Part shown: one piece after another, positions 9,301 to 48,796 of the stretch | How positions within the stretch are numbered: the stretch's first letter is position 1 | Layout: the number at the start of each line of letters is the position of its first letter | Origin: Verrucomicrobiia bacterium | GTDB lineage: Bacteria; Omnitrophota; Omnitrophia; Omnitrophales; Aquincolibacteriaceae | Assembly (NCBI GenBank): GCA_035495615.1 | Contig: DATJFP010000088.1 | Coordinates: 41,763-105,762 of the forward strand | Direction of reading: 5' to 3' | DNA: 64,000 nt | The notes under the pieces: model-generated | What the model was told of the DNA's origin: nothing | What the model saw: only the letters and a program-made list of their open reading frames with translations | Database searches by the model: none | Program-made: the position numbers and the translations under genes

Positions 9301-12300
9301 TCGCTCTTATGGAAGAGCTGGTCGAAGCCGTCGGTCATGTACGTGCCCAGGTCCGTGTCCGGGCCGATGAGGCCGCGGTCGAACTGGAAGATGGCCTTGA
9401 TCTCGGCCGGCTTGTGCTTGGGAGAGGTTTCGAACCGCACACGGACGGTCTTGGCATCCACCTGCGCGACCGTGACCTTGTAGCCGGGATAATTTTTCCA
9501 GGCGTAGACAACTGGCTCTTCGAGCTTCACTTCCACGGGAATGATCTCGTCACGGGACGGCACCACTGACGGCGCCGCGTGCGCTTCCACTTCAGGCACT
9601 TCTTCTTCGGCGGCAACGCCCACGAGATACGTGCGCAGCGTCGTTCCCAGGATTTGGCCGCGCTGGGCTTCATCCGCGACAAAAGGCGCGAGCGACCAGA
9701 CTTTCGTGCTGCTCCTGCGGATGCCGATGAGTGCGGCCGCGCGGCGGGCGGTATCGCCGGCGGCAAGGCCGCGGCGGCTCGCGATTTCCGTGACCAAGGC
9801 TTCGCGTCCGTTGAGCCCGGCCCTTTCGAGGGCTTTCAGCTTTTCGGCAAAATCCGCGGCGGTCGCCGGTTCGGTCTGTTCTTTCAGGAGCGCGGCCAGG
9901 ACCTCGTCCACTTCCTTGAGAAGCGCGTCCGCCGCTTCCGGTGTGGGAGGCACTTCCGCGAGCGCGGCGATGAGAAGATCCACATTGTCCACGTAGCGCC
10001 GGGTGCCCGGATTGAAATAGCTGCCAAAGAAATCGTCGCGGAGCACCGCGGGATCGTGCACGCGCAGTTCCGTGCGCGCGAAACTCCATTCGCGGCGCGT
10101 CTCGTCTTCCTCGTCGCCGAATTCGCGCGCGGTGTCCATGGCGTCGATGACTTCGTGCACGGCGCCGACCGCGTCGGCGTCCAGGCCCGGCGTTTCTTCG
10201 ACTTCCGGCAGCGCTTCCGGCGTGAGGCCGGTGGTCGCGGGCGCGTAACGGCGGGCGGCCCAGCGGATAGCCTTTGCAGACAGGACAAAAAGAAGCACGG
10301 TCAGCGTGCCCGCCACCATCATGGTATGGAACGCCATGAAGTACCACGGGAAGCGGACTTCGTTGGAAAAGGCAAAGCCGGGCGGCGGCAGCGCGGTCAC
10401 CATGCCGTCACCGATGGAAATCGCGGATCCCACCGGGCTCATCGCGAACGGCGGGATGCCATAGATAAGGAAGACGACGGTCAGGCCCATGGTGATAAGG
10501 CCCATGGCGATGCTGACGCCTTTGGTCCAGGATTTATTTTTCCACAGGATGCCCGAGAACCAGGATGCGAGAGGGCCCATCATGAAGGCCACGCCGATCG
10601 GGAAGAACCACAGGAACCAGTGATAGTCGAGAAGCAGCGGCAGGATCGGCCCGAGAGCGCCGACCGCGGCAATGCGGAAGGCGGTCGTGACCGACCACCA
10701 GAGCAGCCTTCCCCGCTCGCGGGAAATGTCGCGGCGGATCAGGTCCGCGCGGCCCGGCGTCAGGCGCAGGGCTTCGTCGTAGGTTTCGCGGATGCCGCGC
10801 GTCACGAAGAAATTGTCCGCCAGTCCTCTCAGGCTAATGGGGATGGTAAAAAAGTACAAGTTGATCCGGAAATCAATGAGCCTGAAAAATCCGCGTAAGA
10901 GGTCCACCGCCCACATGAGGTGCATGGCCCGCAAGACAGGCTCCGGCCCGTACCATTCCATGAGCGCGCGCATCACCACGAAAACAATGCCGACCCCGAG
11001 GCCGATGAACCATCCGAACGGCAGGACCGTGGAGAAAAACGCGGCCATGCCCACTTTGGCGACGATCCATTGCGAGACGCCCGGAATGGCGCCGATCATC
11101 AGGATGCCGAGCATGGCGTGAAGGACGAGGCGGTACCAGCCGGTCCGCGCCGCCTGCCGGACTTTCGTGTCGCGCTCGATCATCGTCTCCGCCTGTTTTT
11201 CGGGCGTGGTTTCTTTCGTGGGATCGATCTCGTGGCGGAAATAGCGCGCGCCCCAGAAGCCGGTCAGGATCGCGGAAAGAATGCCCGTCAGCAGCGCGGC
11301 GCCGAAGACCGCGAGCGCGCCGAAGCCGAGGAGGAAATGCCCGATGAGGAAGACCGAGAAGAGACCCAGGCCGAACGCGAACGAGGTGCCGAACTCTTCG
11401 AAGTAATGCGCGAGCGGCAGTTCCGGCGATTCCGTGCCCGTCGATTTCCAGACCGGCTTGGCCTGCGCGGCCAGCATTTCGAAACGCACGGCGTTGGCGT
11501 GGTCGCCGCGGATGCGGGCCAGGCGCGCCTGCTGCTTGTAATGGGACACGAGCGTATAGTTGGCATAGAACTGGCGGAAGCCTTCGGCATTCGCGTCTTC
11601 GGTGAGGAACAACTTGTTCAGATAAATCAGCGTGGACATCACGGTCTCGGCCACTTCGATGGGCACGTCCGTGAAAAGGTAATTGCGCCATTCGCGGAAC
11701 ATCACGGTCGAGACGACGAGTACTGCGAGCGCCGGCAGGAAGACGGCCGGCGTGATGGGCAGAAGCCCGATCGCGAGCGGGATTGCGACGAACGCGCGCC
11801 ACACGTGTTTCGGGATGCCGAAGGTCCTATCGCGGATGCCCAGGTAAATCAGGATGAGCGTCGCGACAACGCCCAGGATCGGCGCGGTCCACAGGAGCGC
11901 GGTGAGCGACAGCCCCATAAACGGCACGAAGGCAAGGAGAATGGGCACGGCGAGCGCCAGGTATCTCAAGAACCCGGGCAGCCGGAACGTCCTCAGGAAC
12001 GGGAGCCGCACCGTGATCGGCCGCGGGCCGTTGCGCACCGCCCAGAAGAAGATGGCGGCGCCGAAGAACAGGGCGAAAAACAGAAGCGGCAGCGTGACTG
12101 AAGCAAAGATGCCGAGCGTCAGCGTAGCCGCGCTCAGGAATTTAAATCCGACGATGAGCGCGGCGATCATGCCGCCGATCGAGAACATGATGCCGAGCCC
12201 GTTGTAGAGGCTGCCATAGCGGCGGTCGAAAATCCGGTCCGCTTCCGAACGCATCTCTTCCTGGTCCTGCAGCCGGATATGCGCCGGCGCGTCTTCGGCG

Positions 12301-15300
12301 TTCGCATCCACGAACTGGTTCATGAGGCGTTCCCAGAGCGGCGCGACAAATTTCGGCGCAATGAGCGTGATCATGACCTGGAGGAAGATCGTGACGGCGT
12401 AAAGGGCGTAGAAGACTTCGGAAACGCCCGGGATCATGACGCTGATGAAGCCGATGAAGAGCAGCCGCTTCCAGATCGGCTCGCCGATGATGCCGCGCAT
12501 GACGAGGTTGTTCGGGTAGCGCGAGTATTCACTCGTGTTCCAGTGGCCGAGGAAACGCAGCGCCACGTTCGTCACGTCGAAACGTTTCCAGATGCTGACT
12601 TCGCGTTTGTGTTCGTCCGGGAAGTGCGCGGGCGTGCCTTCGGTGATCGGAACGTCGGTGAGCAGCGTGGCCGCGACCGGCAGCATGACGTTGCGCTCGG
12701 TGTCGGGCTCGGCTTCGTAGATGTTCGCGGACGATTCTTTTTCGTCGTGCGATTCCCAGATTTCCGGGTCCGCGGGATAGTCTTTCATCATTTCCGGGAT
12801 GAGGCCGTCCATGACGTCGGAACGCATGCCGAATTTACCGAACGCGCGGCCGCGTCCTTCGGTCGCGAACAGGACCACCTGGAAGAAACGCAGGGTGGCC
12901 TGGGCCACGCCCTTCAGGAAGGTGTACTGCGCGTCGCCCCAGTTCGAGTACTCGATCCACGGCTGGTACATTTTGTACTTCGCGTTGTTTTCCGAGTGCG
13001 ACATCTTCTGCACCGTGCGCAGCGCCGTATCGCGCGGCCACACGTTGTCTTTGTCCGAGATCAGGTGGTTCTTGATGCTGTTGACCGGGTCGCCGATGTT
13101 CAGCGGATTGCCGCGGTATTCGCCGTAATAGAGCTGGCCGTGGGCATTGCGGCGGAAGTAATCGCGGCCGGTCATGTCCGGCCCCGTGTCGCCGTGCGTG
13201 AGGTAGCGGTTCAGGTTGTAATACGACCACGGCTTTCTCACCTGCGACTGGCGCGGGAACACGTAGAACTTGTCTTTGCCGAAATCGCGCCACAACTCGT
13301 AGGCCAGGCGCGCCGTGCGCTGCTCGCGCGGGTCGCTGAGCGCGAGGAGGCGCGACATGTCGCCGTTGGCCGCGGCCCAGCCCGCGTCCAGGATGCGCTG
13401 GATCTGCGGCCACTGGCCGTCGGAAGTACCGCCGTCGAAAATGACGCGCATGTTGTGAAGCGGGTCCGGATCGTCCGGGTCCGCGGTGTCGAGAATGCCC
13501 TGCATGCTCTTGCGCGCGCTGTCCATCACGATATCGAGTTCGGTGATGCGCGCGACGTAGGTGATCGCGCTCTGGTCGATTTCTTTTTTGCCGACTTCAG
13601 GCAGCCCGCGCTCCATGCTGCCGAACGAGAACATCCAGGTCACGAGGCTGAAGCCCAGCGTGATGATGATGCGCAGAAGATAGAAGGTCGCGATCACGGA
13701 AAAGAGGTTGGCGCCCAGGATCAGGTAGCCGGAGAAAATGCCGCCCTTGATCAGCGTCAGCGCCGTGTCGATGACGAGCGGGTTCTGGCTGAACATGTAA
13801 CCGAACACGTACCACAGCGTGCCGAAGAGAATGCCGGAATGGAAGAGCTGCCAGAGCGTGGCCTTGCCGAACTTGCCCACGGAGGCCGGGACGTGCAGCG
13901 TGAACAGGTGCCAGCCGAAAATCGAGATCCTTCTTTCCACGTTCGGGCCCGGAAAGTCGTTGGTCCTGCCCCAGATCGACTGCGGGACCAGCAGGTCGAT
14001 GAGCGCGCCGGTAAGCGTCGGGATAAATCCCGCGGAAACCATTTCGCCCGCGAGCAGGATCGCCAGGCCATACACGATGGCGGCCAGCGGCAGGAAGGCG
14101 GGCAGCAGGAGTTGAATGATCAGGACCGCGGCGCCCGTGATGCCGATGATCGAAAATTTCGCGACCTGCGGCCGGTAATCCGCGTCGATGACCGAAAGCA
14201 GCCGGTAGGCCAGGAAGGCCGCGGACAACAGGCCTCCGAGCAGAAGGACAGCCGGCACCAGGAATTGCGCGGCGAAATAACCGATGAGGCCCAGTGTGAG
14301 CCCGGTGAGCACGCCCATGACCGTAAGGCGCTTGCCGATGTTCGCGTACGGATTATTTTTGGCGGCTTCGCGCCAGGCCACGCCCACGCGGTAGAACGGC
14401 TTGCGCAGCGTGGAAAGGCTGAAGAGCTGCATCACAAAGCGCGCGAGCACAAGCCCCAGGATGACCAGCGCATGCGTGGCCAGTGTCCCCGGCTTGTTCA
14501 GGTCGTACAGGCTGCGGAAAAAGCCCCAGACGCCCGAACGTTCTTCTTCGGGCAGGAAGCGCTGCAGGCGGCGTTCGATCTCCTGCCGGTGCGCTTTGTT
14601 GACGCTGCGCTCGGCATACGTAATGAAAAGTTCTTCGGCGTCCGAACGCATTTCCTCGCCCGGAGGCAGGTCGCCGCGGGTCTCGCGCAGCACCTGCAGG
14701 ATACCCACCCTGCGGCGCACGTCGCCGCGGATGTCCATCAGCAGCAGGAGTTCGGTCTGCGTGAGCGCGGGAATCGAGTCGGGAACCGTCGTCGGATCGG
14801 TCGCCTGCTGGAAGTAACGGCCCGGATAAAGAATGTTGATCTGGGCCTGGGCGCTCACGATGCGCAGACGCTGGTGCGCTTCCATCACGTCATCGACAAG
14901 CAGCCGGATGTCGTTGGGCAGGAGTTCGCCGCGGCGGATTCTGTCGACCAGCGCGGCCACGATGGCCGGGTCGGTCAACGAGCGGCCGCCGAGCCAGTAG
15001 CGGGCGCGGCCGAGATTCTCGGTATCCAGCCGCGAAAGCTGCTGGCTGACGATGCGCGTGAGCTGCTGGGTCACCATTTCGTTCAGTTCGCGGTCGGTCA
15101 CGTAAGGAGTCACGGGCCGCTCGGCCAGACCAATCTTCAGCCACACGTCCGCGAGATAAAGCGCGTGATCGATCGGGAATTCGTACCAGTGCATGGCGAC
15201 AATGGGATCGCGGTTGAAGTCCGCGAGATCGGCGCGGGCCCGCTGAAGCAGGACGCCGCCGACCGTCGGATCGACGAGCGATACCGCGATGGCCTGGGTA

Positions 15301-18300
15301 ACGGCCGCTTCCCGCTTCGCGCGTTCCTGCCGGATGATGAAATCCGCGGGATTGCGCTCGAAATCCGTGACCGCCCTCTGGGCCGCTTCGAGCTGGGGAC
15401 GCAGCGATGCGTCCGCGGCCGCGAGCGGCGTGAGACGCGTGACTTCGGCCTGAAGGCGCGTGCGTTCGGCATTGATGACCTGGATCGGAACGGTTTGATG
15501 GTTGTCCCGCGCGATCTGCCGCAGCCGCTGCGTGCTGAGCTGCTGAATTTCGCGCGCCATCCTTACCCACGCCAGCAAATCCTCGAGCCTGACGCCGGCG
15601 TTGCGGGTATTGTCCGCCATCCGGTAGGCCTGGTCGTCGGTGACCGGATAGCCGGCTTCGTTGAGCGCGGTCTGGAGCTGACGCGCGCTGTCGAGCACGA
15701 TCTGCAGGTCCTGCACGTCGCGCAGGATGACCGCGTCCACGCTGAAACCCAGGCGGTTGACGACCTGCTGGCGCTGATCGGGATCGGTGAATCCCCACGT
15801 GTCGTAAAGGCGCTGCGAAAAAGCAGTGATGCGCGAGCGGTGATAAAGCGGCAGGCGTTCCCGCGGGTCGCGGGGCAGGTTATAGACCTGGCGGTAGATG
15901 CGCTCCACCTCGTTCTGGATGGTGACGTATTGCATCACGACGTCGTCGACGGAGCGGCCCTGTTCGATCATGACGTTCACGTAGTAGCTGACGTCGAATT
16001 GACCGAGCGAAGCCGGGTAGCCGCGGTCGCGGATGTCGGGGCGCTGCAGGTAGCGCTGGTACGATTCCTGGATCTTCTGGGCTAAGGTTTCCGGAGTCTC
16101 TCCCGCCGGAATGCGGCCGCGCAGCGCCGTGCGCTGGTCCGCGCGCAATGTCCAAAGGTCGCGGACGGCCTGCGTTTCGCGGTAGGTTCTGTTGCGCAGA
16201 ACCTCCGCCTCGCGCTGACGCTGCGGCATGCGCGCAATCAAGTCGAGGAGCGGCCCGTTGGTGGAAAGGCGCGGCTCAAGCAGCAGGTTGAAAATTTCCC
16301 CGCGGCCCGGACGGACGTACTGCGAGACTTCCTGGTCCGGGCCGAATTGCAGGTACACCTGGTGGCCGAATCCCGAGGCAAAGGTCTGGTCCGCCATGCT
16401 GAGACGCGCGATGAGTTCGCGCTGCGCGGCCTCGCGGTAGTTCGGCGACAGCGCCTGGAATCCGGGCATCCGCATGATGCGCGTCCAGGCCGCGGACACG
16501 CGGTCGGTCGTGGCCTGGTCCGGCACTTCATGGAAGATGTTGGCCCAGGTCCACAGCAGGCGGCGCTCCATGTTGCCCTGCGGCCCGAGGTCGCGGTAGC
16601 TGGAGTCGCCGCGCGCCACGACTTCGAAGAAGCGCCGCATCTGGAAAATCTGCACGGGGTTCATGGGCTCGCTGGCGGCCCTGCCCTCGCCTTCGCGGCG
16701 GAAACGCTGCACGGCCGAGCTGATGTTGAGCGCGTCGATGAAGACGTGCAGGTATTCGTAAGAAGCCTTCTGGATGTTGAGCACGTCCTGGAAATATTCG
16801 ACGATCCACTGGCGGTCGCGGCCGAGCTCGTGCATGCGCACGACAAAACCGAGGCGCTGCCACGGGTCCATGACCGGGAACTGGTCGGCGGCCGCATCCC
16901 CGTAGGTGCGGCGGATTTCCTCGATGGCCAGCCTTTCCTGCTCCATGACGAAGCCGTCGTCGCGCAGGAGGCCGGCGATGATGTGGACGCTGGCTTCTTC
17001 GCTGTCGGAAACGATCCGGGAACGGACGAGCGTGATCCACGACGAGAGGTCGGCGAGTTCCAGGCGCTGGTGCACGCCGCCCTGGCGGTGATAGCGCATG
17101 TACACGGCCTGCAGCAGCATTTCCGTGCGGCCGCGGTCCATGAAGAACTGCCGCGCCTGGTCGATGTCCGCGAACTGGAATGGCTGGCCGGAAAGGCTGT
17201 AGCTGCGCATCTGGCCGCGCTGGTCGCGCAGGAACTGCGTGGCGAGCTGCACGGCGTCGCCGGGCAGCACCATTTGCTGGCTGAGACCTTCCCGAATGTC
17301 GCGGTCCGGATTGCCGAGGATCAGGTCGACCAGGCTGGGGTTTTCGGCGGAGCCTACCAGGTCGTCGTCGGTCACCCACGCCGGGCGCGGCGCGGTGCCG
17401 GCGCGCCAGGCCTGCAGCTCGGTGACCAGGCCGGGCCGCGTCGTGAAGCCGGAATCGTTCTGGGCCGAGAGGCGCCGGACGTTCTGGGCGAACTGGACGA
17501 GCTTGAAGAAATCCTCGATCGTGAAGCGGGTGCCGAGAAGCTGGGCGTAGGAGCGGTCCGTCCCCTCTTCGGGGATCTGATAAGTGCGGTAATAATAAAG
17601 GTAGAAGTACTTGACCTCACCGTCGGTCAGGCCGCCGTTGCCGCGTCCGGGCCAATGATCGCGCGCGGCGCTCTGGACGCGGAGAAGATCGGTCATGGTC
17701 TGCGTGATGTCCGCGGCCGGGAGGTCGATCCTGCGGTTGACTTCCTCGATCATGCGCACGCGGGAATCGAAAAGGCCCCACATGCGGCCGCGGTCGGCGG
17801 GGCTCATGGCGCGCAGCGCGGCGTCCGAAGCAAAAGGAGCGACCAGCGTGCCGAGGTTGATGCCCTGGTAATACTGCACCAGCTGCGGGCGCAGGTTGAA
17901 GATCATGTGCGCCAGATTGCGAGTATGCGCCGTGAACCGCTGCACGTCGGAAAGCGGCGCTCCCGTCGTCACGAAGTTCTCCTTGCGCGCTTCGATGGAC
18001 AGAAACGCGGTATAACCGATGAGGAAGTTCCAGCCGTCGTCCGAGCGGTAAAAGCTGTTCAGTCCCGTGATGGAAGCGCCGCGCGTGCGGGCCGCGGCCG
18101 CGTCGCCGGTATCGTTGAAGAGCTGCAGCTGCCCGACCGTGCGGTAGAAATCAAGGCGCGCGGACGGATTGGCGTCGATGGCGGGCAGGACGCGCAGGAC
18201 GTCGTCGACAATGCCGCTCGTCGCGCGCCAGCTCGCCTGGTAATCGACGAGATATTCCGTGCGGAACTGCACCCAGCCGAGCACCGCGCCGAGCGTGCGG

Positions 18301-21300
18301 GGATCGCTGGCAAAATTTTCACCGACCGTGAGCCGGTTGTCGCCGCGGCCTTCGAGGCGGAAATTCAGGAGCCGGTCGGCCTCGCGGAGAGCTTCGGCGC
18401 GGCGCGTCGGATCGCGGAACACCCACTGCAGCCGGGGAACGCGCAGGCGCACCTTTTCCATGTAACGCGTGAAGAGTTCGTCCCAATGCCGCTGGATCTG
18501 CGCGTTGTTCCAGCCCGGCTGGACGCGGGCTTCAAGCGCGGCGCCGGCAAGGAAACCGTTCAGGAGGCCGCTCGCCTGCTGGTCCGAGAAAAGACGGCGG
18601 TCGACGCGTCCGTCTTTGCCGATGTAACCGGTCAGGCGCGGCAGTTTGCCTTCGCCGAACGCGTCCGCGCCGAGAATCGCTTCATAGTACTGCTGGGCGT
18701 TGCGGAGCGCGGTGACGAGGCGGTCGTTGTTGGCGAGATAATAGTCGATCTGGCGCGTGCGCGATTCCGAAGCTTCCAGCGTCAGGGACGGCAGGCGCAG
18801 TTCAGGGCCGTCCGCGGTGGTCGGCGGAGGCGCGATCTGAGGCGCCCCTCCGAACGGCGCCCCTGCCCTCGCGGGCGGAGCGGCAACGACGCCGCGGACT
18901 TCGACGTCCGCGCCCGGCGGAATGCGGTTGGCCGTGCGCCAGGCGGAAAGCGCGTCGCGGTGCAGCATGGCGAAAGCGTCCAGCCGCGACCGTTCGCGCA
19001 AAAAGGCCATTTGCGATTCGCCCTGGCGGCCGATCAGGCCGTTCAGGCTCCTCAGGTGATTGGCCATCACGTACGTGCGTACGGCCGTGCCGCCGCCGTC
19101 CTGCGAATCAAAAGGCCCGTTGGGTCCCTGGCCCTGGAAATTGCGGATCCACGTGGCGACGGCTTCGGGATGCTGGCTCGCGAATGCCGCGACCGGCGTG
19201 ACGGTCAGATGGTCCATGCGCGGAGTGCCCGATTGCGAGCGGAACGCGCTGTTGCCCATGTTCGGATCGAAAGCGCCGAACGGACCGGAAACCGCGGACG
19301 GGCTGAAAACGCCAGGGCGCCCGTTCTGCCTTGCGTCGTCCATCATGGCGCGGAAATAATTGGCCTGCATTTCGCGGAATCCCGGAATGTTCATCTGCGC
19401 CCAGATCGGGGCGTTGTAGCTCATGCCGGACGCGCCGCCGGTGGATGTCGTCGCGACGCGCGCGGTCGAGCCTCCGGCGAAACGGTAATCCGAGGCCGTG
19501 AACGTGGGCGTCAGCCCCGTGAAAGCGCGCGAGTCGACGTCGAAGAGCGTCACGATGAGCGCGATGTCGGCGGAATCTTCGGCGAAAAGATCGGTGCGGA
19601 GATTCTCGCTCAGCGTGACGCGCTGAAGGTCCGCGCGCGGCATGAACGTCACGCGCGCCGAAGTGTGGAACAGGTGCCGGTCGCCGTTCAGCATGGCGCG
19701 GTAGCCTTCCCGCTGGGCGTTGATCGCCGCGATCGCCTGGTCGCGCAGGTCGGTCAATTCGCGCGGGATTTCTTCGCCCGCGGCGCGCAGGCGGGCGATT
19801 TCGCGGATCAGACTGCCGGCATAGCGCGCGAGCGACGCGGTGAGGTGGGCATTGTCGACGAACGAGATGTCGCCGCTTTGCGGGCGCGGGTCCGCGCGGT
19901 CGAGGTGAAGCCCGGGGATCAGCCCGTTCCAGCTCGACTGCGGGTTGCCCTGCAGGCGGACAAGCGTTTGCAAAATGAGCCGGGATTGCGCGGCCGCACG
20001 GGCGCGGTCTTCGGGCGCCACGCGGCTGTTCACGTCGCGCGCCTGGACGTGGCCGTAATATTCGAGAAGCGCGCCGATTTCGGTGGGCTGCGTGGTCTGA
20101 CGCGGCGCGGTCTGGTCCGGGCCGTAAACTGAATACGGGAAACCGGTCCTGGGATCGATGACCATGGAGCGGTCGCCGCTGCGGGCATCGAGGACGTCGT
20201 CGAACTGATCCACCAGTCGCTGCACGTCCGCGGCATCGGGAGCCGGTCCAGCCGGGCCTGCGGGTCCCGCGGGCCCCGTGTCCGTATCCATCTGTCCAAA
20301 GATCAACAAGACTAAAGGAAGCGCCATCATGCCGGCCGAGCCTGCATCCTGCACCGGCGGGCGGAGCGGCGCGAGAATCGGCGCGGCCCTGACGCCTGTC
20401 ATGGGATCCACGTCCACCTGGCGGGCGAGTTCGTGAATCGCGGCGGTCGTCAGTTCCGGCGGCATTTCCCGGCCGGAGTTGAGCACGCCGCGGAGCGCGA
20501 CGACTGAGGGTTTGATCGTGGAAACGTCTTCGCCGTTTTCTTCCATGCGGTCCGTGGCATGGGAGACGTTGCCCATCATGACGAGCGATTGGGCCCTGCC
20601 GAAATCGCGCAGGCGGTCTTCCGGCGCGCGCGCGTTGCGGGCCTGCGCCAGAACGCGTTCGGCGGCGTCCCGGTCTGCCCCCGCGTCCAGACGGTCGACG
20701 CTCGCGCTCATGGACTGATAAACCTGGATTTCCTTCGAGCTCCATCCGGACCGCGAGAGGTCGCCGACTTCGGTATGCACGCCGACGACGCCGAGAACAG
20801 TCGCGCTGAAGCGCATCACCGAGTCCGCCACCGTGATTCCGGTTTTGTCCTGAGCCCAGCCCAGGATGTCATGGCCGACGTTGATCGCGTGATGCTCGAC
20901 GAACGTGACGGGCGAAGCAACGGCGTTGGTGACGTCGACGTTATCGCCGCGGATCTGCGTGAAGACCCAGGAAGTGCCCTTGCCGATGTATTGCGCGAGG
21001 CCGTAATCGTGGACATTGCCCTGGGCGTCGGGATGACCGCCGGCCAGCACCGCGATTTCCGCGCCGACCGTCAGCATCATGCCGAAGGTACGGATGAATT
21101 GCAGCCAGAACTTTCCGGATGACAGGGTCCGGAACAAGCCAATGGCAGGCGCGTACGCGAAGCGCTGTGCGAGCGTCGGAATGATTACGGTCGGAGGCGC
21201 GCGGGGCGCGGCAGGCGGCACCGCCTCGACGGGCCGAGGTTCGTCGGCCATGCCGAGCAGCGCGCGAAGAACGCGCATTTCCGAGTCCACGCTGTAACGG

Positions 21301-24300
21301 ATGAACGGTTCGAGCGCTTCGAGCGAACGGTAGATGTCCGCCTTCTGTTCCGTGGAGATGCCGCTGTCGTCCTGCGACGCCTTCAGCATGAAATTCCGCA
21401 CCGCGCCGTAATCGAGCGATTCCAATCCTTTGAGCGCGGGCATCTGCGCGAGCAGGAGGCCGTCCAGGTACTGGTTCGAGAAGGACCGCGCGAAATTCGG
21501 AATCGTGAGGACCATGGACAGGAAAGCCGTATTAAGGAAGCCGGAAACCGTGAAGGCATGGACAAACGCCTGCACCGCGATGCCGATGATCGGAATGCCC
21601 GCCGTGCTGACCGTAAGATACGAGCCGACAAAACCCAGGAGGCTCGCGCCCGCGATGCCCGCGGGAAGGGCAAAGGAAATCAGGGCGAGGCCGAGCGCGC
21701 CGATGAGGGCCATCATGGTCCTCTTCTGGATGAATGTCAGGGCCGGGAAGACGAGCGGCTTCAAAATCAATTTTTGGACGACGCGGTAAACCGTGTTGTA
21801 CCAGCGATTGCCGTACTGGAGTCCGTTCAGGACGGACACCACCGGCTTCCAGCGCAGGAACAGGTGGTAAATCCCCTTCTCGGCCAGGCCGCCTTTGCGC
21901 CAGTCCGTGAACTGGCGGTCGTAACCCGCCTTGTTGGCGGCAAGCATGGCGCCGGCCAGCGCGTGGATCGACGAAGAACGGTCCATGGCTTCGACCGCGC
22001 TGATGATCGTATAGCCGCGGATCGTGAGCCCGCCGCGGAAAAATCCGAAAATGATCGCGCGGCGGAAATAACCGTAGAAGAACTGGTCCAGGAGGTGCGG
22101 GCCGGCCATGACAAACCAGCGCGCGATGCGGTATCCCCGGTACAGGAATCTGCCCCAGAACGTCTTGGGCTGCTCATCCGGGCCTTCGTGCGGCTGCTGG
22201 TCCGCGCGTTTGTAATGCGCTTCGAATTCTTTTTCAAGCTCCGAGTAGATGAACTGCCACTTCTTCACGTCCGGATCGTTGTAATCGAAGCCCGTGGCGC
22301 GCGCCAGGTCTTTCAAGTCTTCTTCCGAGTAGCCGAATTCCGCGCGGATGCGCAAAATGATCCGTTCCCGGTCCGGATTCACGCCGAGCTTGAGCATGCC
22401 CTGGATGTCGGGCGGCTTGCGCTCGTAGCGGCGAAGGACAGCCTGGATCGCGGTTTCGAGCGCGGCCGACTGCGTCCGCAGTTCCGCGCGCGGCATCGTC
22501 TCGTTGACGCGAAGGCCGGAACGCATGCCGGTAAAGATGCCCTGCAAAAATTCGCGGCGGCCGAAATCTCCGGCCTGGGCCATTTCAAGGGCGTTCTTGC
22601 CGAACCACAGCGCCCCCATGCCCATCCCCATGCCCTTCTTTTCCATGTTGCGTTCCTGCTCGAGGGTCTGCTCGTAAATCCTTTCGTATTCGTCGCGCCA
22701 GAAGCTGAAGTAAAGGCCCTGGTAATAGCTGTTGTCCGGAAGTTCGGCCTTGAACTGGTCGTACTCGGTCTGGAATTCGGGACGGACGAAAGAGCCGTCG
22801 GGGTTTTCGACATTCACGCCCTGCAGCGCTTTGAGGCGGCGGAAGGCGCGGCGCATGAAACGTTCGCGCAGGTCGGCGATGTCGGCGCGGCGTCCGATGC
22901 GGTTGATCGCGCGCACCATCTCCAGGCCTTCGCGCAGCACTTCGCCCACGTTACGGTCCCGCTGGTCGGAGCGGTAGCCGAGCGTCAAGATCGAGTTCAC
23001 GTAAGCGCGGACGCGCGGGTTCGAGTAATACATCTCCGGCGTGATGTTTTCCGGGATGTTCGGGTCGGTCGGGAAAAGCGTCCGGTAGAAGCCGCGCGAC
23101 AATTCACGGGCCCAGTCGAACGCGTGCTTGGTCTGCAGGGTGTCGTTCTGCGGGTTACGCAGTTCGAAAAGGAGCTGGCGGGGCTGCGTCGCGTCCGCGC
23201 GGTTGAAGCGCGTCGGATTCGCGGCGCCATCCGCGGGAACACGCGCGCGGCGGCCGTAGTCGATGAAAATGTCTTTCAGCAGCGCGACGCGGCCGAGTTC
23301 GTTGCGGTGGTCGGCTCTTGCCGCGGAGATGCGCTGGTTTCTCGCGGCCCCGTCGGCGCCCGTGATGAGCCGCGCCCTTTCGATGATGGCGTTCAGAAGC
23401 GCGCTCACTTCACCTTTGGTGATCTGCGGCAATTCGTCGAAGGACGGTTCGTCCGGCAGGACCGGCTGACGCAGCCCGAGCGCGCGGTTGCGGATGTTGG
23501 CCAGCGAAGCGACCGCGTTCAGCAGCTGGTTCAAATGGTTTTTCCCGCTCGAGGGATCCGTCTTGATCCTCTCGGGGTCGGCTTCGATGTAATCGACGGC
23601 CGCCTGCAGGCGTTTGCGGAAATTCACGACGGCGTCGCGGTTGTTGGTGTCCGCGGGCGTTTCGCGGATCACGTCCGCGGCCAGGGCGAGCAGCATGCCC
23701 ATGTTGAACGGCGCCGCTTCCATCTGTTCCTTGATGAGTTCGCGCTCCTTTTTCTTGGTGGGGTCGAGGCGCGGATTGCGTTCGACGCGCAGGACGCGTT
23801 CCTCTTCGGGAACATCCGACCAGTTCGTCCATTCTTCGTCGCCGCTTGTCCGCAGGCGGTAGATGTAGCGCTGGGCCAGCTCGTCGTTCTGCAATTCGTG
23901 CGCGATGCGCAGGTCGAGCTTCATCGTGTTGTAGTCGTAGCCGAGCGCCGAGAAATCTTCTTCGATCCTGGAGACGATCGACTGGTCGCGGAAATACGGG
24001 TCGGCGATGTTCAGCCTGCGGCCGTAAAGACGCTCGAGGTCCGGGAGCATCTCGCGGATGTTGCGCAGGCGGCCGTGGAAGAAGTCTTTGAACGCCTGCG
24101 TGACGCGGCGGTCCCCGCCCTCGCCTTCGAAAACCGGGATGTTCCGCTTGTCGGCGATCTCGCGCGTGCTGATCACCCACGCCATGCGCATGTTGACCCA
24201 GTACTGAAGAACCATCTGGCTCGTCCACTGCACCAGGTCGCCGCGCAGACGGCGCGTGACGCGGCGGACCCTTTCGTTGTTGCCGCTCAGGATGTCGAGC

Positions 24301-36300: not shown

Positions 36301-39300
36301 GCGAAACCTCCGATGCGCTGACGCTGCCGTTCTTCGGGCAGCCGCGCCACGGCCGCATCGACGTCCGCTTCCGTGCTCTGTTCGTTGGCGGCGAGCGCGT
36401 TCATGGCCGCCTGCGCGTCCCGGATCAGTCTCGAATCTTCTTCTTCACGTTCCCGCAGGAAATCGCGGCGCGCCAAAGCCGCTTGCCGCAATCCTTCAAC
36501 TTCGGGCGATTTGGCGTTCTTCAGCCGGTCTTCCTGGGCGCGGATGTCGTTGACGTCTTCCGCGGCGGCGATTCGTTCCCGGATGTTCTGCACCACGGCA
36601 ACGCGCTTGGCCTCGATCTGCGGCCTCGCTCCTGTTTTCAAATCCTCATAAGGTACGGCTTCTGCCCGCTCGGCATAAGATTCGATGACTCCGAGCGGCA
36701 CGCCGTCTACGCCAAAGCCCGTCACGTCGCCGACCAGCCGTTCCATTGTTCGCTGGTAGTAATCGTAAATCTGGGCTTCCATCTGAGTCCGCTTGGCCTC
36801 GAGCCGCGGGAACACGAAAAGAAGGAGCGCGTGAAGGCTGGGGGTCGATTCGGTTTGAGCCAGGAGGTTCTTTTTCGCGCGCGCGTAGGCGGTTTGTTCC
36901 GCCGCGGCTCCGGCCTCCTGGTATTCTTTCAGCGCGCGGACGAATTCGTAGGAACTCTTCTGGTCCAGGGGCGGCATTTCCGTGGAAGTCAGCATGGCCG
37001 CGGCTTCGGGCACGATCTGGTCCGGCTTGTCGAGCTGTGCCGCCATGGCCGAGATGAGCCGCGATTCGTACTCGGCGAGGGCGGCTTCAGTCGTGCTGAG
37101 GCGGGCGCCGATGCGCGATTGAAGTTCCGAGACAAGAGGCGCGGGACTGTCGGCCGTTCCGGCAAGCGCCGCGGCTTCCTGGCCCAGGCCCTGGAGGCTC
37201 TGGTAATTTTCGTGCGGATCGCCGCGGGTCTGCTCGAGACGCTGGGCAATGTCGCGGAACTTGATCGTGTTATCGACCTGCGGCGTACGAACTTCGCCGG
37301 GCAGCACTTCGAAAAAGGCAATGACCGCCAGGATGGCGTCGAAATTCGCGGCCACATCCCCCATGTGGGGCTGCAGCGCGCCTTGCAGGAGGGTTTGTCC
37401 GCGCGCGGCAATGATGCCCGGAATCTGGGGCCTGTCCGCTTCGGAGGCCGCGCCGCGCTGCGCGTACGTGTCTACCAGGATCTGCGGGCTCATGGCCTGC
37501 GCCGTCGTGGTCTGGATCAGTTGAAACGCCCGGGCCAGCTTCAGGACGTTCAGGGCGTCGTTATTTTCAGGAGAAAATTTCGTGGTGTCCCACGTGATGG
37601 CGGCCAGACGCTCGAAGGAGTCCGCGCGGTTGATTTGCTTGGCCAGCCGGCCGAAGCGGGATTTTTCCGTGCCGCGCCATTTGATCACTCCCCAAATGGC
37701 TCCGGCTCCGGCCGCGAGACCCGCTGCGATTAAAGCGGGCCCGGTAAGATTGGGCGCGTTGACCGTGACGCCTCCTGCTTGTTCCGCCAAATACTGATAA
37801 AGTTCGTAAACGCCGTAAACCGCCACGCCGGCGCCGGTGAGAACTCCCAGGCCGAGCAGAATGCGGTTTCTCCAGACGCGGGCCGTCTCTTCCCGTCTTT
37901 CCAGTTCGGTCTTTCTCGCGCGCGCGCCGTCCTGCTCCGCCGCGGGCAGATCATTGATCACAGCTTCGGTAATATCGGCCGACCGCCGGGCTGCTGCGAC
38001 GGCTGCGCGCGCATCCTCGATCTTCTTGAGAGCGTCGCGCTTTTCCCGGGCCTGGTCCCGCTCGCCGTCGTTTTCGAGATCCGCGAGCACCGCGTCGGTA
38101 ATCTGCGCCGACTGCGTGGCCGTGGCGACCGTACTTCTCGCGGCTGCAAGGCGCGCCGCCTGGATCGCCGTCCTCTTGCCTTCCGCGACTCCGGCGAGCC
38201 TCGCCGCTTCCGTCGTCTGAGCTCCTTCCAGACGCGCCGTCTGCGCGGCCACCTCTTCGATCGTGCTGGCGTCGGTCAATGCCGTCAACTTGCCTTCGAT
38301 GTCCGCCACGATTTGCGTGACTTTGCCGCGGATTTCATCTTCCACCGCCCCGCGAGCGGCCCCGTCTTTGATGCCGGCCGCCAGAGGCAGAAGAGCTTCG
38401 GCGTCGCTTATTTTCGCGGCAGCGGCATCGATCTGTCCGAGCTGTGTCCGGATATCGCGCGCTTTATCCTCGTCACCCCGCAGCCGGTCGCGAATCTGTT
38501 CCACGGCGGCATCCGCCTGGTCTTTCACCTGGATGCGGAGACGTTCCTCCAGACCGTTCACAATGGCGGCGAGCTGATCTTCCGTGGCCGTTTCCAAATC
38601 CAGGGCTCCGATCGCGCGCTTGGCCTCAGCGACCGCGCGGCCGTCCGCTTCGATTCTCGCCTCGATGGCTGCGCGTTTGGCTTCCGCCAATTCCCGCAGC
38701 CGCGCTGCTTCGGGAGTCTTGGCATCTTCGAGGCGTGCGGTCTGCGTCACCACCGATTCGGGAGTGTTGAGTTCGGTGAGGGCATTCAATTTGCTTTCGA
38801 TGTCGGCGACGATCTGCCCGACTTTGCCGTTGATCTGGCTTTCGACACTGCCGCGAAGCGTCGCGTTCTGGATCTGCGCGGCGCGCGTCAGCAGGGCTTC
38901 CGCGTTTTCGATCGTGGCGCTTTCAGGCTGAACCTGCCCGAGATCCGAAAGGATGGCGCCGGCTTTTTCGTTGTCGCTGCGGCCGCGCTCGCGGATCGCG
39001 GCAATCTTGGCATCCGCTTCGTCGCGCACATGATCACGCAGGCGGGCCGGCAGCCCGCTGCGAATGGCTTCAACGGCGTCTTCCGCCGCCGTGTTCACAT
39101 CAATGTCGTCGATCTGGCGCTTGGCTTCGACTATAGCCCGGGCATCGGCCCCGAGCCTGTCGCTGATCGCCTGTTTTTTCTGTCCCGCCAGATCGCGCAG
39201 GCGTCCGGCATCGGCAGCGGCGGCGCCTTCGAGCCGCGCAGCCTGGGCATCCGGGTCAGCCAGCGCATTCAGTTCCGTCATGGCGTTCAACTTGCCTTCG

Positions 39301-45300: not shown

Positions 45301-48300
45301 ATTTTTCGGACCGCTCCCGCCGACGGAGTCTGCTTGAGTCCCGCCAGCGTCTGTCCCGCTTCCGCGATCGCTTTCTTGGCATCGACCGCCGCGGGCTGCT
45401 GCACGGGTTGGCGGGCCCGCTCGAGCGCACGCGCGATGCCGGGAAGATCGCGGATTTCAGGAGGCAGGGCTTCGAGAGTCTTGGCAATTTCGGCGACTGG
45501 TTCCGGGACCATCTCCGGATCGAGCTCGGGCGTCAGCGAAACATCGAGGGCATGCTGGATATTATTGTAGAGCAGATTCCCTTCTGTCCCCGTGGCCTTG
45601 TCTTCGTAAGAGAGCTTCTTAATAATGTAGTCGCGCAGGTCCGCCATTGCGAGAGCGATCGTGCCGGCCTGAATCTGGCGCGCGGCAAACAGAATCGCGT
45701 GATGGTCATACGTAATGCCCGTCGTATCCGAAACCTTGGGCATGTTCGCGGCGCGGTCTTCTTTCCAAAGGTCCTCATTGCTCATGGCCGCTTCCGGGAA
45801 GGCCTTGTTATGCTGGCGCAGCGATGCTTCCTCAAGCAAATCCAGGACGGCGTTCCGCTGCTGGCCGCCGAGCGCGTTCCAAGCCGCTTCGTCCGACCGG
45901 CGGATCAATTCGATCTGGTCGCGCAGCGCCTGCTGCAACTGCCCGGCCGCCTCTTCCCGCTGGATTTGGGAAGTCCACGCCTGCGGCAATTTATCGAGGA
46001 TCCAACGCTGTACCTGGACCGAATAATCCGTGACTTTCTTTTCCGTGGCCGTGCGCGGAACGGTGAGGCTCATCGGGTCTCCCGGCTGGACTTGCAGCCG
46101 GTCCAGATGCATCAGGAAATGAATGAGCGCGTTCTTTTCCTGCTTCGTCCACGACGTAAGCTCGGAGTTCCACCGCTGAAGCCCCATGAACCGGTTTCTC
46201 GAGAGATCGTAGCGGCGCTTTTCGATTTCCGGACGCGGGCGCTCCACAGCGCCTTCCTGGAACCGCAATTCGCCTTTCAACGCGGCCTGGCCGAGGTCGG
46301 TAACGACGACGCTGATCTGGCCGGGCTGCACCTTGCCGAGCGCTTCCGTGACGGCCGGATCCCTGACCAAGTGCGCATCCACGGGCCCGGAATAATAGTT
46401 GCTGTCGCCGAGCTCCAGCCGGTTCAAACGGTCGGGCTGTTTGAAAAGCCCGCGGGCTTCCGAATCCTGGCTGCGAAGCACCTTCGCAAAAAGGCGCAGC
46501 GCCTGTGTCTTGTCTTCGCCCGTCTGCCACAAAAACTGGTTCGGACCTTTCCGCTCCAGCACGCCGCCGAAACGGTTGACGATCGCGAGGAGACCCTGCT
46601 GGTATTCCGCAGGAATTTCCGCGGCGATTTTCTTACGCATTTCCTCGAGCGCCTGCTCAGGAGTATTGCTTTCGAAGATGCTTTCGACGATCGTCAGGGT
46701 CATGAGGAAAAAGGCGTGCGCGTATTCAGGATCGCGGGCGATGAAATCGGCGGCTTCCTGGCGGAGACCCAGGCTCGCCGCATTCAGAAATTCGCGCGCC
46801 TTGGGCGATTTTTCGATGACCATGTGCCAGGCCGCGAGCTGGAAGCGCGGGTCGCTCAGGCTTTGCTGCTGGGGCGGGAGGAAAGTCTCCACCAGCCGCG
46901 TTTCGAGCGGCATCGGCTTCTGGCTGAGGGCGTCCACGTAAAGCTGCGTTTCCTTGGTGTCGTCGATCTGGCCGTGGATCCGCGGCGCGATCACAAGGAA
47001 AGAATAATCGTTTTCCTTGAGATAGGCCTCGATGCCGGGCGTATGGAAACCACCGGTAATGATCGCCATGATCTGCTGCTTCCCGGATTCCATTTCCCCG
47101 ACCGCTCTCTCGATCAGGATCTTGTCGCGTTTGAGAGCTGCGGAATAATAACGCTCCACGCGGCCAAGATCCTGATCAAGGATCTCCAAAAGGGACGGCA
47201 ATCCATTGGAGAACTGATGTTGCTTTAAGAGCGGTACGAGGAAATTACGGAATGTCTCTGCCTTGAATTCGTCGCGGTATGTGTAGAAAAAGTCTGCGTC
47301 CTGCTTGGTCAGGGTGAAATTGAACATCTTCTGGTAAATCTCGAAAATGCGGAACAGCCGGTCCAGCTGCACTTCCTCTTCGTTGCGGAACAGCTTGTTC
47401 TTGATGTCCCGCTCGAGCGCCTCGATCTCGCTGAAGATCGCGACGTCGATCGAATCGTAGAGCCTCATATATTTAAGGTAGCGCAGGACCTCGTCGTACT
47501 TCTGGGCCAGCTCTTCCTGCCCGGCCCCCTGCGTCGACTGCATGTTCTGGATTTCGACCTGGAGATAGCCGTAATAGTCCGCGCGCTTCATCTTCTTCAT
47601 GCGGAACTGGACCGTGTTGGTCAGAAACTCGGAGAGTTTTTCACGCGTGAGGACGTTTTTCAGGTCGTTGATCAGGTCTTCGATGCTTTTTTCGGCTTTG
47701 TCGAAATCGATTTCTTTTTCGAGATCGATGAGCGAGAGAAGCGAGTGCATGCCCGGATAATCGTAAAGGGCGATGTTTTCTTTGCGGGCCGTTTCCACGA
47801 GATGGCGGACGTAACTCACGAGTTCGTTGCCGCCGGACTGGAAGGCCTGCCGGTAATGCAGCATGTCCCGCAGATCATCGGAGAAAACGAACCGGGAAAC
47901 ATCGTCCATCAGCTTTCCGAGGTCCGCCAGAACTTTTTCGTCTCGGTCTTTGTATTGCAGGGCGTCGAGATAAGCGCGCCTGTTTTCTTCATAGATCTGG
48001 CGGTCTTCCACGCCGTACAGGTTCAGTTCCGGCCGGTCGACGATCGCGAGGTATTCGGGCCCCGTCAAACGGGCTTCTTTCAAAAAGTAATCCGCGACAT
48101 TTTTGCGGGCTTCTTTGTTCGGAAAAAACGAAAAGAGTTCGGTGAAGAGTTCGCCCTCGGCGCCTTCCAGGTTGATCAGTTTAAGACCGTAATTTTTGGC
48201 GAAATAATCAAGGATGCCCGCGATGTTGCGCTGGGCCTCTTCATTTGCATGAGCGTCCTGGATGTGGATGACGATGCGGTCGCGGGAACCCTGGAAGTTT

Positions 48301-48530: not shown

Positions 48531-48704
48531 GAGGATTTGCCGTCCCTATGTTTTGCTGGCCAAATTGACGTGCTAACTTACCGACTACTTAAAAAATTGA
48601 TTTATATTGTTATATTTAAACTATATATCAAAGTTTTTAAACTCACAATAGTATAGACCGAAATAATTGTAAGTTAAATACTTGATAAAAGTTTTTATGA
48701 AGTA

Positions 48705-48795: not shown

Positions 48796-48796
48796 T

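Follow-up and report, generated by a model that had tools for sequence, protein, structure and literature searches.

The window analysed here, a stretch of 64,000 nucleotides from an Omnitrophota genome, carries on its minus strand one giant gene with a gene trio directly upstream. From the 5' side, the first features of the locus are:

48797 to 51243, minus strand: gene trio next to the giant gene on its 5' side, for a response regulator, a PAS histidine kinase and a second response regulator (from open reading frames and their translations)
3 to 48530, minus strand: giant open reading frame of at least 16,176 aa, its 5' end complete at the ATG at 48530 and its 3' end past the left edge of the window
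48435 to 48530, minus strand: signal-peptide-like N-terminus, MIDWQTRRAKPWLR / TVALLVALIFIV / HDVVWA↓DGGG
46596 to 48434, minus strand: conserved N-terminal family domain of ~610 aa (BLASTP, 51-64% identity to the related loci L001-L014)

The minus-strand frame runs free of stops from position 48545 to position 3, a total of 16,181 codons with the first ATG at 48530, and its product of at least 16,176 aa exceeds the 10,000 aa by which giant proteins of Omnitrophota genomes are recognised. Its N-terminal 620-720 aa share 47-64% identity with 14 loci (BLASTP), about half of which are titled Candidatus Omnitrophota/Omnitrophica and the others 'uncultured bacterium' MAGs; synteny upstream of the giant gene is kept, and the orthologous locus is present in Omnitrophota MAGs. 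One could ask whether such a frame encodes one protein at all, as it might have arisen by chimeric assembly or encode a polyprotein whose membrane modules are released as separate polypeptides. The GC content of 0.55 in the N-terminal domain rises to 0.64 in the body of the protein, this body has almost no homologues in the 14 related loci, and possible cleavage of giants by C39 or S8 peptidases has been discussed by West-Roberts et al. (10.1101/2023.11.21.568195). However, 16,181 stop-free codons cannot arise by chance, the plus-strand open reading frames over the gene are antisense shadows only, cysteine is absent from the entire frame, which argues for one selective regime, and the modules are collinear with other multi-thousand-residue proteins; moreover, no peptidase domain was found by Pfam in the 16,181 aa within the window. 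We therefore regard a frame that is not one protein as hardly probable at all.

Hydrophobic segments were taken from Kyte-Doolittle (KD, 19-aa) and additive Hessa scans, and all statements on topology made here are scale-based. The most N-terminal segment (48497-48441; KD 2.04, additive Hessa 3.9) had been called an anchor in the preliminary description of this DNA, but by inspection it has instead four K/R in its n-region, the h-region TVALLVALIFIV and a V-W-A↓D site, in agreement with the positive n-region, 10-15-aa h-region and small residues at -3/-1 of Sec (SPase I) substrates. This n-h-c layout with its AXA-type site is conserved in 13 sequences ('M.EWQ..K.WLR..A..TA..F....WA↓DG'), and the segment looks like a cleavable Sec signal peptide rather than an anchor. 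The ~610-aa domain that follows has no match in Pfam, NCBIfam or the PDB sequences. Further along the chain lie the following membrane-related features:

37680 to 37862, minus strand: hydrophobic pair H1/H2, Gly/Ala-rich, with an uncharged loop of 21 aa and 5 and 5 K/R in the outer flanks
27108 to 27167, minus strand: single hydrophobic helix S (IIIAGAVVGVAAVIAGGYIW), K/R clusters on both sides, then a Pro-rich linker
20217 to 22463, minus strand: conserved membrane module M, ~750 aa (BLASTP to L005 and L009)
21498 to 21716, minus strand: three-helix hydrophobic block M1-M3 within module M, 72 continuous hydrophobic residues
13617 to 14474, minus strand: polytopic cluster A, ~9 helices (A1-A9), from the KD and Hessa scans
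12465 to 13598, minus strand: GT-A glycosyltransferase (GT) domain, Cgs GT84/OpgH-like, 380 aa between the clusters (residues 11650-12027)
10272 to 12464, minus strand: polytopic cluster B, ~15 helices (B1-B15), mostly hairpins with K/R-rich flanks

The hydrophobic segments previously listed at ~48.45, ~37.75 and ~27.15 kb and in both clusters were all found by our scans, the proposed total of more than 20 clustered helices agrees with the ~9 of A and ~15 of B, and the general picture of a giant multi-pass membrane protein is supported. Both clusters are present, although B begins at 12464, ~0.35 kb further 5' in the gene than the 12.1 kb given before, and the earlier list left out the conserved M1-M3 block (21.7-21.5 kb), an omission that changes the parity of any topology. 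Among the hydrophobic segments only the clustering is statistically strong: within 1,450 aa there are 23 windows at KD>=1.6 (shuffle mean 4.4, maximum 8, 200 shuffles) and 20 Hessa-positive segments (shuffle mean 4.1, maximum 9). The soluble part holds 7 hydrophobic 19-mers at KD>=1.6 against 11.6 in composition-matched shuffles, and the shuffles give P=0.24 for at least one window at KD 2.39 there. Being no commoner than such shuffles produce, the isolated segments are not significant by hydrophobicity alone, and they draw support from conservation of the N-terminus, from their K/R flanks and from similar anchors recurring in relatives.

These counts would suit a reading in which true membrane embedding is confined to module M and clusters A and B, and H1/H2 and S are buried helices of soluble Ala-rich domains, leaving the protein with fewer membrane stations. 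Consistent with it, H2 (KD 1.78, Hessa 3.05) fails the additive Hessa threshold, and no segments homologous to H1/H2 or S were found among the 14 related loci. S (KD 2.39, Hessa -0.05), however, is uniformly apolar across 20 residues and bracketed by K/R, and its design of a single-pass helix with a Pro-rich linker recurs in the relatives L002 and L008; similarly, H1 (KD 1.83, Hessa 1.76) and H2 stand 21 aa apart, bear small-xxx-small motifs and have symmetric K/R flanks, and a hairpin resembling them is present in the relative L007. On balance we find it unlikely that H1/H2 and S are buried in soluble domains.

Module M is conserved in two relatives by BLASTP, with 36% identity over 793 aa to L005 (E=8e-122) and 32% over 654 aa to L009 (E=4e-86), in both of which it comes directly after the N-terminal domain. 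Its M1-M3 block is strongly conserved in these two relatives, and the module has no match in Pfam or the PDB. Two other hydrophobic patches were considered as TM helices and rejected: p9401 (20345-20289) aligns to polar sequence in relatives, and p3731 contains D and E and has a Hessa sum of 6.8.

The stretch between the two clusters had been taken as a compartment of its own, yet spacer and clusters make up one functional unit. As judged from homology, clusters A and B with the 380-aa domain are one very divergent module of ~1,400 aa, of the glucan-synthase type, homologous to Cgs/NdvB GT84 and OpgH-like. An exhaustive HMMER scan of 1.84e9 proteins with p11570-12769 gave 17 matches, among them P0003, a stand-alone protein of 932 aa (E=1.7e-35), and P0004 (4,150 aa), both collinear with p11700-12774. 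The window is linked to the members of the family profile by phmmer at E=1e-15 to 1e-35, and the profile of window and relatives finds Cgs/NdvB in the PDB (8rf9/8rf0, E=4.6e-24) in an alignment that spans the catalytic core and the TM helices after it; the profile of the window's own subfamily alone still reaches Cgs at E=8.5e-11. NCBIfam MdoH models match the relatives P0009, P0013 and P0006 at 1e-13 to 1e-7, far below the curated cut-offs, and do not match the window's own sequence, on which no Pfam or NCBIfam GT model detects the GT domain either. Word-indexed homologue searches gave nothing useful for the complete TM core or for the isolated GT domain and only P0013 and P0018 for the family profile, and scans of metagenome contigs found no relatives of the module.

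The structural models point in the same direction. AlphaFold2 (AF2) predicts the GT domain as an alpha/beta fold with a pLDDT of 70-88, and Foldseek matches it to membrane-embedded synthases with a GT-A fold (HAS 2.2e-4, Cgs 3.4e-4, BcsA 3.8e-3). The membrane part of the model is poor (mean pLDDT 53.7), so that a polymer channel is not visible in it, and a single-sequence model of cluster B is unusable (pLDDT 51). TM helices flank the GT domain on both sides, a layout common to P0003, P0004 and P0008. Helices A7-A9 belong to the synthase module and A2-A6 are missing from P0005, which matches the A1 region (p11301-11386) and p11515-11708 (A7-A9) and skips what lies between; cluster B is collinear with the C-terminal helices of the stand-alone P0003, and p12289-12428 and p12585-12774 are matched by P0003, P0004, P0002 and P0015. 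The last helix of B is followed by KAIRWAARR. The active-site motifs, all on the minus strand, lie at:

13337 to 13332, minus strand: SD
13058 to 13044, minus strand: DxD (SDKDN)
12965 to 12960, minus strand: QP
12839 to 12834, minus strand: GK
12752 to 12744, minus strand: SHD, catalytic base
12593 to 12588, minus strand: IW in place of RW

Thus SD, DxD, QP, GK, SHD and E..P are kept in the window, and by profile alignment and the residue roles reported for Cgs (PMC10901819) these motifs correspond to Cgs D527, D624/D626 and D739. LSD (p11736-38) and SDKDN (p11830-34) align to D527 and the D624/D626 DxD, and the SHD at p11932-34, invariant across the alignment, matches Cgs D739 and BcsA D343. 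The exception is the arginine of (Q/R)xxRW (Cgs R773, BcsA R382), which is Ile in the window (S-I-W, p11984-86, with the W kept) as well as in the closest relative P0001, and K or R in other relatives; because of this replacement synthase activity may be altered or lost. The SHD..E and RW-type motifs are shared with OpgH/MdoH.

This substitution would suit a reading of the module as a degenerate relic, in which the helices would merely hold a very large and mostly cytoplasmic protein at the inner membrane, and the GT domain would be structural or regulatory and make no polymer. The lack of any match to a curated model, of a GH144 or GH94 partner domain, and the extreme divergence and rarity of a family with 17 matches in 1.84e9 proteins would fit such decay. 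On the other hand, 6 of 7 catalytic or nucleotide-binding motif positions are kept, including both DxD aspartates and the catalytic base, and their conservation across relatives only 25-30% identical points to purifying selection at the active site. We consider a relic distinctly unlikely.

Compared with Cgs/NdvB, the window module has ~16% identity, ~24 helices instead of 6 and the Ile noted above, and forms part of a protein of >16,000 aa with a signal peptide at its start; GH144-like cyclase and GH94 phosphorylase domains are not detectable within the window. Searches for PF10091 and GH94 domains there gave no match, and phmmer and BLASTP with the relatives' PF10091 domains gave nothing as well. 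In the family at large, P0016 carries a fused PF10091 glycoamylase (GH144-like) domain and a PF10091 gene lies 10 bp downstream of P0013, partners that mirror the arrangement of GT84 and GH144-like cyclase in Cgs (PMC10901819) and that may, by analogy, link the module family to beta-1,2-glucan. With OpgH/MdoH the window module has in common the succession of TM helices, GT region and TM helices, OpgH being laid out as cytoplasmic region, TM helices, central cytoplasmic GT region, TM helices and cytoplasmic region (PMC12366229). Given ~24 helices against 6 in Cgs or the 8 predicted in OpgH, some of the clustered helices may have another role. No sequence-level match of the window to BcsA, hyaluronan synthase, chitin synthase or CesA/Csl was found.

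In BcsA, HAS and chitin synthase the helices form a polymer-conducting channel, and in Cgs they do not; passage of the polymer through the membrane has been demonstrated for BcsA and HAS and suggested for OpgH, and in Cgs it takes a path at the inner face. Combining the above, we propose that the chain begins with a conserved Sec-type signal peptide and a 600-aa head domain and would meet the membrane at a Gly/Ala-rich hairpin, a single helix, a conserved three-helix block and two dense clusters. The GT domain would lie on the cytoplasmic face directly beneath the helices, where the retained SD and DxD aspartates would bind an NDP-sugar and the retained SHD aspartate would act as catalytic base, and the module would build a glycan, probably a beta-glucan. 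Its helices may hold the active site in place and also define the route by which the polymer leaves, either through the membrane, similar to OpgH, BcsA and HAS, or along the inner face, similar to Cgs. The data show the open reading frame and its lineage, the hydrophobic segments, the homology and fold of the GT domain and the retained motifs; catalytic activity, product and channel formation of the module are things that we infer.

The arrangement of the helices bears on topology. Nearly all helices of A and B, and also H1/H2, form tight hairpins with K/R-rich outer flanks, so that the chain returns to the same side and the large loops stay cytoplasmic; for the same reason the GT domain, the long loops and the C-terminal nucleotide-handling parts are likely cytoplasmic, as are all soluble domains in Cgs (PMC10901819). 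This does not fit the strictly alternating compartments of the preliminary description, according to which the protein winds back and forth through the membrane and the clusters serve as a channel or transporter core that has nothing to do with catalysis. Single-pass helices after a signal peptide would indeed put the chain on alternating sides, the hydrophobic segments are where that model puts them, and the AF2 membrane part is too poor to exclude a pore. Nonetheless, the clusters matched no transporter or channel family or fold (Pfam, NCBIfam, Foldseek), the spacer is a GT-A domain homologous to Cgs whose flanking helices are collinear with stand-alone synthase homologues, the hairpins carry K/R on both outer sides, and the list behind the model omits the conserved block at 21.7 kb. 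What survives of the idea of a channel-like core is that the synthase superfamily includes polymer-channel enzymes; the clusters, rather than being a transporter in their own right, supply the membrane part of the synthase module, and we judge the alternating model very improbable.

For the glucan-synthase-type reading, the GT domain, which must face the cytoplasm, offers a fixed landmark to orient the rest of the chain. Upstream there is a conflict, in that the signal peptide puts the first 3,500 aa outside, whereas the K/R flanks of H1/H2 and a PP2C-like domain (below) argue for the cytoplasm. By parity and the positive-inside rule we considered three models: in the first, the signal peptide places R1 and R2 outside and S returns the chain to the cytoplasm; in the second, H2 does not span the membrane and R1 and R3 are outside; in the third, R3 is the only part that is not cytoplasmic. 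None of the three agrees with all the constraints set by the signal peptide, the K/R flanks and the PP2C domain, and which of the upstream 9,000 aa would lie outside the cell can be put forward only as a prediction. A similar conflict between predicted localisation and domain type in giants is described by West-Roberts et al. (10.1101/2023.11.21.568195).

Searches of Pfam, NCBIfam and the PDB sequences over the 16,181 aa returned only weak matches, to PP2C, Cmk, nucleotidyltransferase (NTase) and ARMT1:

33276 to 34160, minus strand: PP2C-like phosphatase domain (Pfam PP2C_2 E=6.5e-5, below cut-off)
6906 to 7109, minus strand: CCA-nucleotidyltransferase-like stretch, weak (PDB 3h37 E=0.0086; NCBIfam PRK13299 E=0.0064)
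5430 to 5762, minus strand: ARMT1-like (damage-control phosphatase) stretch, weak (Pfam PF01937 E=0.0018, below cut-off)
171 to 281, minus strand: cytidylate-kinase-like P-loop start (Pfam Cytidylate_kin E=1.8e-8, profile positions 1-37 of 211)

The PP2C-like domain, which also has a partial match to NCBIfam Stp1 PP2C (E=8.3e-8) and contains the motifs NED, ADGAGG, SDGG and DDDVS, sits between the hairpin and helix S, that is, between the second and third membrane passages as had been noted. Likewise the Cmk-like and nucleotidyltransferase-like modules anticipated after the last cluster have their weak matches there, together with the ARMT1-like stretch; the nucleotidyltransferase assignment is a weak hint. 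The cytidylate-kinase-like start is matched by TIGR00017 (E=7.6e-9) and PDB 1q3t too, the rest of such a domain would run near or past the left edge of the window, and in the relative P0004 a complete Cmk domain follows the corresponding synthase module. The helical repeat rod that had been proposed would have to be one without recognisably similar units, since self-BLASTP of the giant protein found no internal repeats at E<1e-6.

Taken together, we suggest that the chain represents the first at least 16,176 residues of a giant Omnitrophota envelope protein, an explanation to which, as a whole and including the glucan-synthase-type module, we would assign a probability of roughly 0.7. Similar to other giants of this phylum it is longer than 10,000 aa, has a signal peptide and many TM helices (as read from the hydrophobicity scales), strings phosphatase, kinase and HAD-type cytoplasmic domains along the chain and consists of divergent domains mostly missed by standard HMMs. 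Many membrane helices had been thought unusual for giant proteins, yet they are common here: of 916 long Omnitrophota proteins, 94% have a signal peptide or TM helices, and one has as many as 147 helices (10.64898/2026.06.07.730766), and all full-length giants of West-Roberts et al. have numerous TM regions (10.1101/2023.11.21.568195). Hence a serpentine topology is not new for these proteins. A divergent SecA_DEAD domain occurs in 'most' full-length giants (10.1101/2023.11.21.568195), whereas SecA_DEAD, dockerin, TSP3, C39 and S8 domains had no match in the 16,181 aa within the window, the C-terminal part lying beyond it. The GT types reported for Omnitrophota giants are GT1, GT5 and starch synthase, and a Cgs/OpgH-type module is not mentioned for them in either study (10.1101/2023.11.21.568195; 10.64898/2026.06.07.730766).

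Giant Omnitrophota proteins represent a large annotation gap, as most of their length gets no match from standard HMMs, and their TM helices have so far been treated only as anchors. Here at least one dense helix block can be recognised as the membrane portion of an enzyme, a Cgs/OpgH-type glycan synthase whose active-site aspartates are intact, which offers a concrete, testable function for ~1,400 residues and suggests that these predators or epibionts make a glucan and do not only degrade one. The family is small (17 representatives in 1.84 billion proteins), and its stand-alone versions of 600-930 aa would suit expression and structural work. More speculatively, the whole protein could be a single-chain factory for envelope glycan that spans both compartments, in which cytoplasmic nucleotidyltransferase-like and Cmk-like modules would feed an expanded Cgs/OpgH-type synthase of ~24 helices, this enzyme would make a glucan polymer and pass it through the bundle of its own helices, and Cys-free, Ala-rich N-terminal rods led by the signal peptide (up to ~7,000 aa) would stand outside the cell as a scaffold for deploying the polymer, for example during attachment to prey or host. 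If true, this would be a new architecture that couples synthesis, export and display of a polysaccharide in one polypeptide, but we think it quite improbable. Upstream of the gene, the same trio of response regulator, PAS histidine kinase and response regulator also precedes the giant gene of L001, and it is possibly co-regulated with the giant gene.

The evidence presented here suggests, at a probability we put at about 0.7, that hydrophobic cluster A (at least its helices A7-A9), cluster B and the soluble spacer between them form one membrane-integrated glycan-synthase module within the giant minus-strand gene (3-48530), rather than the transporter-like core that a preliminary description had suggested for the two clusters. 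The minus-strand frame runs from 48545 to 3 through 16,181 codons with no stop (first ATG at 48530), and since it exits the left end of the window the protein has at least 16,176 aa, with its C-terminus outside. In what follows p numbers are codon indices counted from 48545, the true residue being p minus 5. Kyte-Doolittle (KD, 19-aa window) and additive Hessa scans found hydrophobic segments at all positions where a serpentine topology had been noted from the sequence alone:

p17-35, 48497-48441, minus strand: N-terminal segment (KD/Hessa scans)
p3562-3622, 37862-37680, minus strand: pair H1/H2 (KD/Hessa scans)
p7127-7146, 27167-27108, minus strand: single helix S (KD 2.39, Hessa sum -0.05)
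22463-20217, minus strand: membrane module M, ~750 aa, enclosing M1-M3
21716-21498, minus strand: hydrophobic block M1-M3, 72 residues, not among the segments first noted
p11358-11643, 14474-13617, minus strand: cluster A, about 9 helices (scale scans)
p12028-12758, 12464-10272, minus strand: cluster B, about 15 helices (scale scans)

Helix clustering is far beyond chance, with 1,450 aa holding 23 windows at KD>=1.6 (mean of 200 shuffles 4.4, maximum 8); Hessa-positive segments number 20 (shuffle mean 4.1, maximum 9). The soluble Ala/Leu-rich part holds 7 hydrophobic 19-mers at KD>=1.6 against 11.6 in composition-matched shuffles, and because such 19-mers are no commoner than in shuffles, hydrophobicity by itself does not make H1, H2 and S significant; what supports them is that they are uniformly apolar, that K/R residues are dense in their flanks and that relatives show the same designs. 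A similar hairpin occurs at related locus L007, and at L002 and L008 a Pro-rich linker comes after a single-pass helix. The N-terminus (MIDWQTRRAKPWLR-TVALLVALIFIV-HDVVWA|DGGG), first described as an anchor, looks like a cleavable Sec signal peptide, a better fit given that the n-h-c layout and small -3/-1 residues are kept in 13 sequences. The serpentine observation is confirmed in part, the conserved block M1-M3 having been left out of it and the N-terminus looking less like an anchor, and its interpretation is likewise supported only in part. Module M shares 36% identity with L005 (E=8e-122; counterpart 13043-15340) and 32% with L009 (E=4e-86; 6798-8864), M1-M3 being the best-conserved stretch against both; it matches nothing in Pfam or the PDB and may have three or four helices. 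In relatives it directly follows the N-terminal domain (aa ~1,010-1,790), whereas in the window ~8,000 aa lie between. West-Roberts et al. found many TM regions in every full-length giant (10.1101/2023.11.21.568195), and of 916 long proteins 94% carry a signal peptide or TM helices, a single protein having as many as 147 (10.64898/2026.06.07.730766), so that many-helix and signal peptide plus TM topologies are already documented for Omnitrophota giants and the serpentine form is ordinary for the lineage.

The clusters A/B region had no match in curated libraries or a PDB sequence search, and a word-indexed protein search returned no relatives; an exhaustive HMMER scan with p11570-12769 found only 17 proteins among 1.84 billion representatives. 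The relatives P0003 (stand-alone, 932 aa, E=1.7e-35) and P0004 (4,150 aa) are collinear with p11700-12774 and, likewise P0008 (6,825 aa), consist of helices, a 300-400-aa soluble domain and many further helices, and the spacer aligns to these proteins across a set of invariant positions. A profile of the window and its relatives aligned with the PDB structures of Cgs (8rf9/8rf0) over the catalytic core of GT84 and the TM helices that come after it, and a profile of the window's own subfamily alone still matched at E=8.5e-11. NCBIfam MdoH/OpgH models recognise three of the relatives, with E-values of 1e-13 to 1e-7 that do not reach the models' cut-offs. An AF2 model (15-sequence alignment) was poor overall (pLDDT 53.7), with an alpha/beta spacer at pLDDT 70-88, and in Foldseek it retrieved the membrane synthases HAS, Cgs and BcsA. 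Alignment to Cgs, with residue roles from PMC10901819, placed the motifs as follows:

p11736-38: LSD, Cgs D527 (UDP-coordinating), retained
p11830-34: SDKDN, Cgs D624/D626 (DxD), retained
p11932-34: SHD, Cgs D739 (catalytic base), retained
p11984-86: S-I-W, Cgs R773 (RW motif), I instead of R, likewise in the nearest relative P0001
further motifs: QP, GK and E..P, retained

What sets the module apart from known family members is its ~16% identity to Cgs, its ~24 helices (6 in Cgs, 8 in OpgH), IW instead of RW, the lack of detectable counterparts of the Cgs cyclase/phosphorylase partner domains (no GH144-like or GH94-like domain is detectable within the window) and its embedding in a polypeptide of >16,000 aa. 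The Cgs arrangement of GT84 plus GH144-like cyclase (PMC10901819) is mirrored by two relatives: P0016 carries a fused PF10091 (GH144-like) domain, and at L015 (809-4006) the stand-alone homologue P0013 (625 aa, GT and TM helices) has a PF10091 glycoamylase/GH144-like gene 10 bp downstream and then a large RHS-repeat/YD-shell gene, an arrangement that looks like a split 'mini-Cgs' operon. Both relatives connect the family with beta-1,2-glucan chemistry. The mechanism with most support is a GT-A domain that faces the cytoplasm, clamped beneath a large helix bundle; it would polymerise a glycan, probably a beta-glucan, that would either pass through the bundle (OpgH/BcsA-like) or be retained inside (Cgs-like). 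For Omnitrophota giants the literature lists soluble GT domains such as GT1, GT5 and starch-synthase, and a Cgs/OpgH-type membrane synthase is mentioned in neither paper (10.1101/2023.11.21.568195; 10.64898/2026.06.07.730766).

All soluble domains of Cgs are cytoplasmic (PMC10901819), and with an NDP-sugar substrate the GT domain must be so too. Nearly all cluster A/B helices form pairs with 0-3-residue turns and K/R-rich outer flanks, and KAIRWAARR comes after the last helix of cluster B. Together with the Cgs comparison this puts three parts on the cytoplasmic side, namely the spacer, the long loops and the C-terminal region, with its weak matches of CCA-NTase-like, ARMT1-like and Cmk P-loop type; cluster B must then have an even number of membrane passes. 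The alternating compartments proposed earlier are therefore contradicted for the last 5,000 aa. Upstream, the signal peptide predicts export of region 1 (3,500 aa, essentially without hydrophobic segments), whereas the K/R flanks of H1/H2 (5 per outer flank, 0 in the 21-aa loop) and the PP2C-like domain that follows, its metal-binding motifs intact, argue for a cytoplasmic location and against export. Helix S has K/R on both sides. Each simple global model breaks one constraint (signal peptide, K/R flanks, PP2C-like domain, S or M), so alternation is not established there either, and any specific global topology is doubtful; a like difficulty with such giants is reported by West-Roberts et al. 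(10.1101/2023.11.21.568195).

The first 620-720 aa of the giant share 47-64% identity with long-ORF starts at 14 GTDB loci, about half titled Candidatus Omnitrophota/Omnitrophica and the others 'uncultured bacterium' MAGs, and the upstream genes (patatin-like phospholipase, acyl-CoA synthetase, lysophospholipase) are syntenic in 5/14 (L001, L003, L004, L006, L013), and together these findings identify the gene as an Omnitrophota giant gene that lies at an orthologous locus. In these loci only the head domain and one internal module have counterparts, and none exists for the rest of the body; giant genes share a head and a few cassettes, with bodies otherwise unrelated. Composition also differs between conserved head (46581-48530; GC 0.548, GC3 0.717) and hypervariable body (3-46580; GC 0.637, GC3 0.80), with GC 0.53-0.56 and GC3 0.60-0.70 in the adjoining genes (48600-64000) and GC 0.44-0.55 in related loci. 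Regions 1 and 2 (p40-7120) are 14-15% Ala and ~30% charged, almost without hydrophobic stretches, and BLASTP of the protein (3-48530) against itself found no internal repeats at E<1e-6. Opposite the gene, a plus-strand chain of ORFs (165-41495; 1,037-1,886 aa) in one shared frame is an antisense shadow of the GC-rich coding frame, by which gene callers could be led astray. The frame has no cysteine in 16,181 codons and relatives' partial ORFs (up to 4,055 aa) have 0-3, a near-absence that points to Cys being strongly selected against in the family; the word cysteine does not occur in either giant-gene paper (10.1101/2023.11.21.568195; 10.64898/2026.06.07.730766). The upstream neighbours are:

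48797-51243, minus strand: response regulator, PAS histidine kinase and second response regulator, directly upstream on the giant's strand
51412-57014: lysophospholipase, long-chain acyl-CoA synthetase and cNMP-binding patatin-like phospholipase, lipid-related, their synteny upstream of the giant conserved in several Omnitrophota MAGs

The two-component trio also precedes the giant gene in L001, and is possibly its dedicated regulator.
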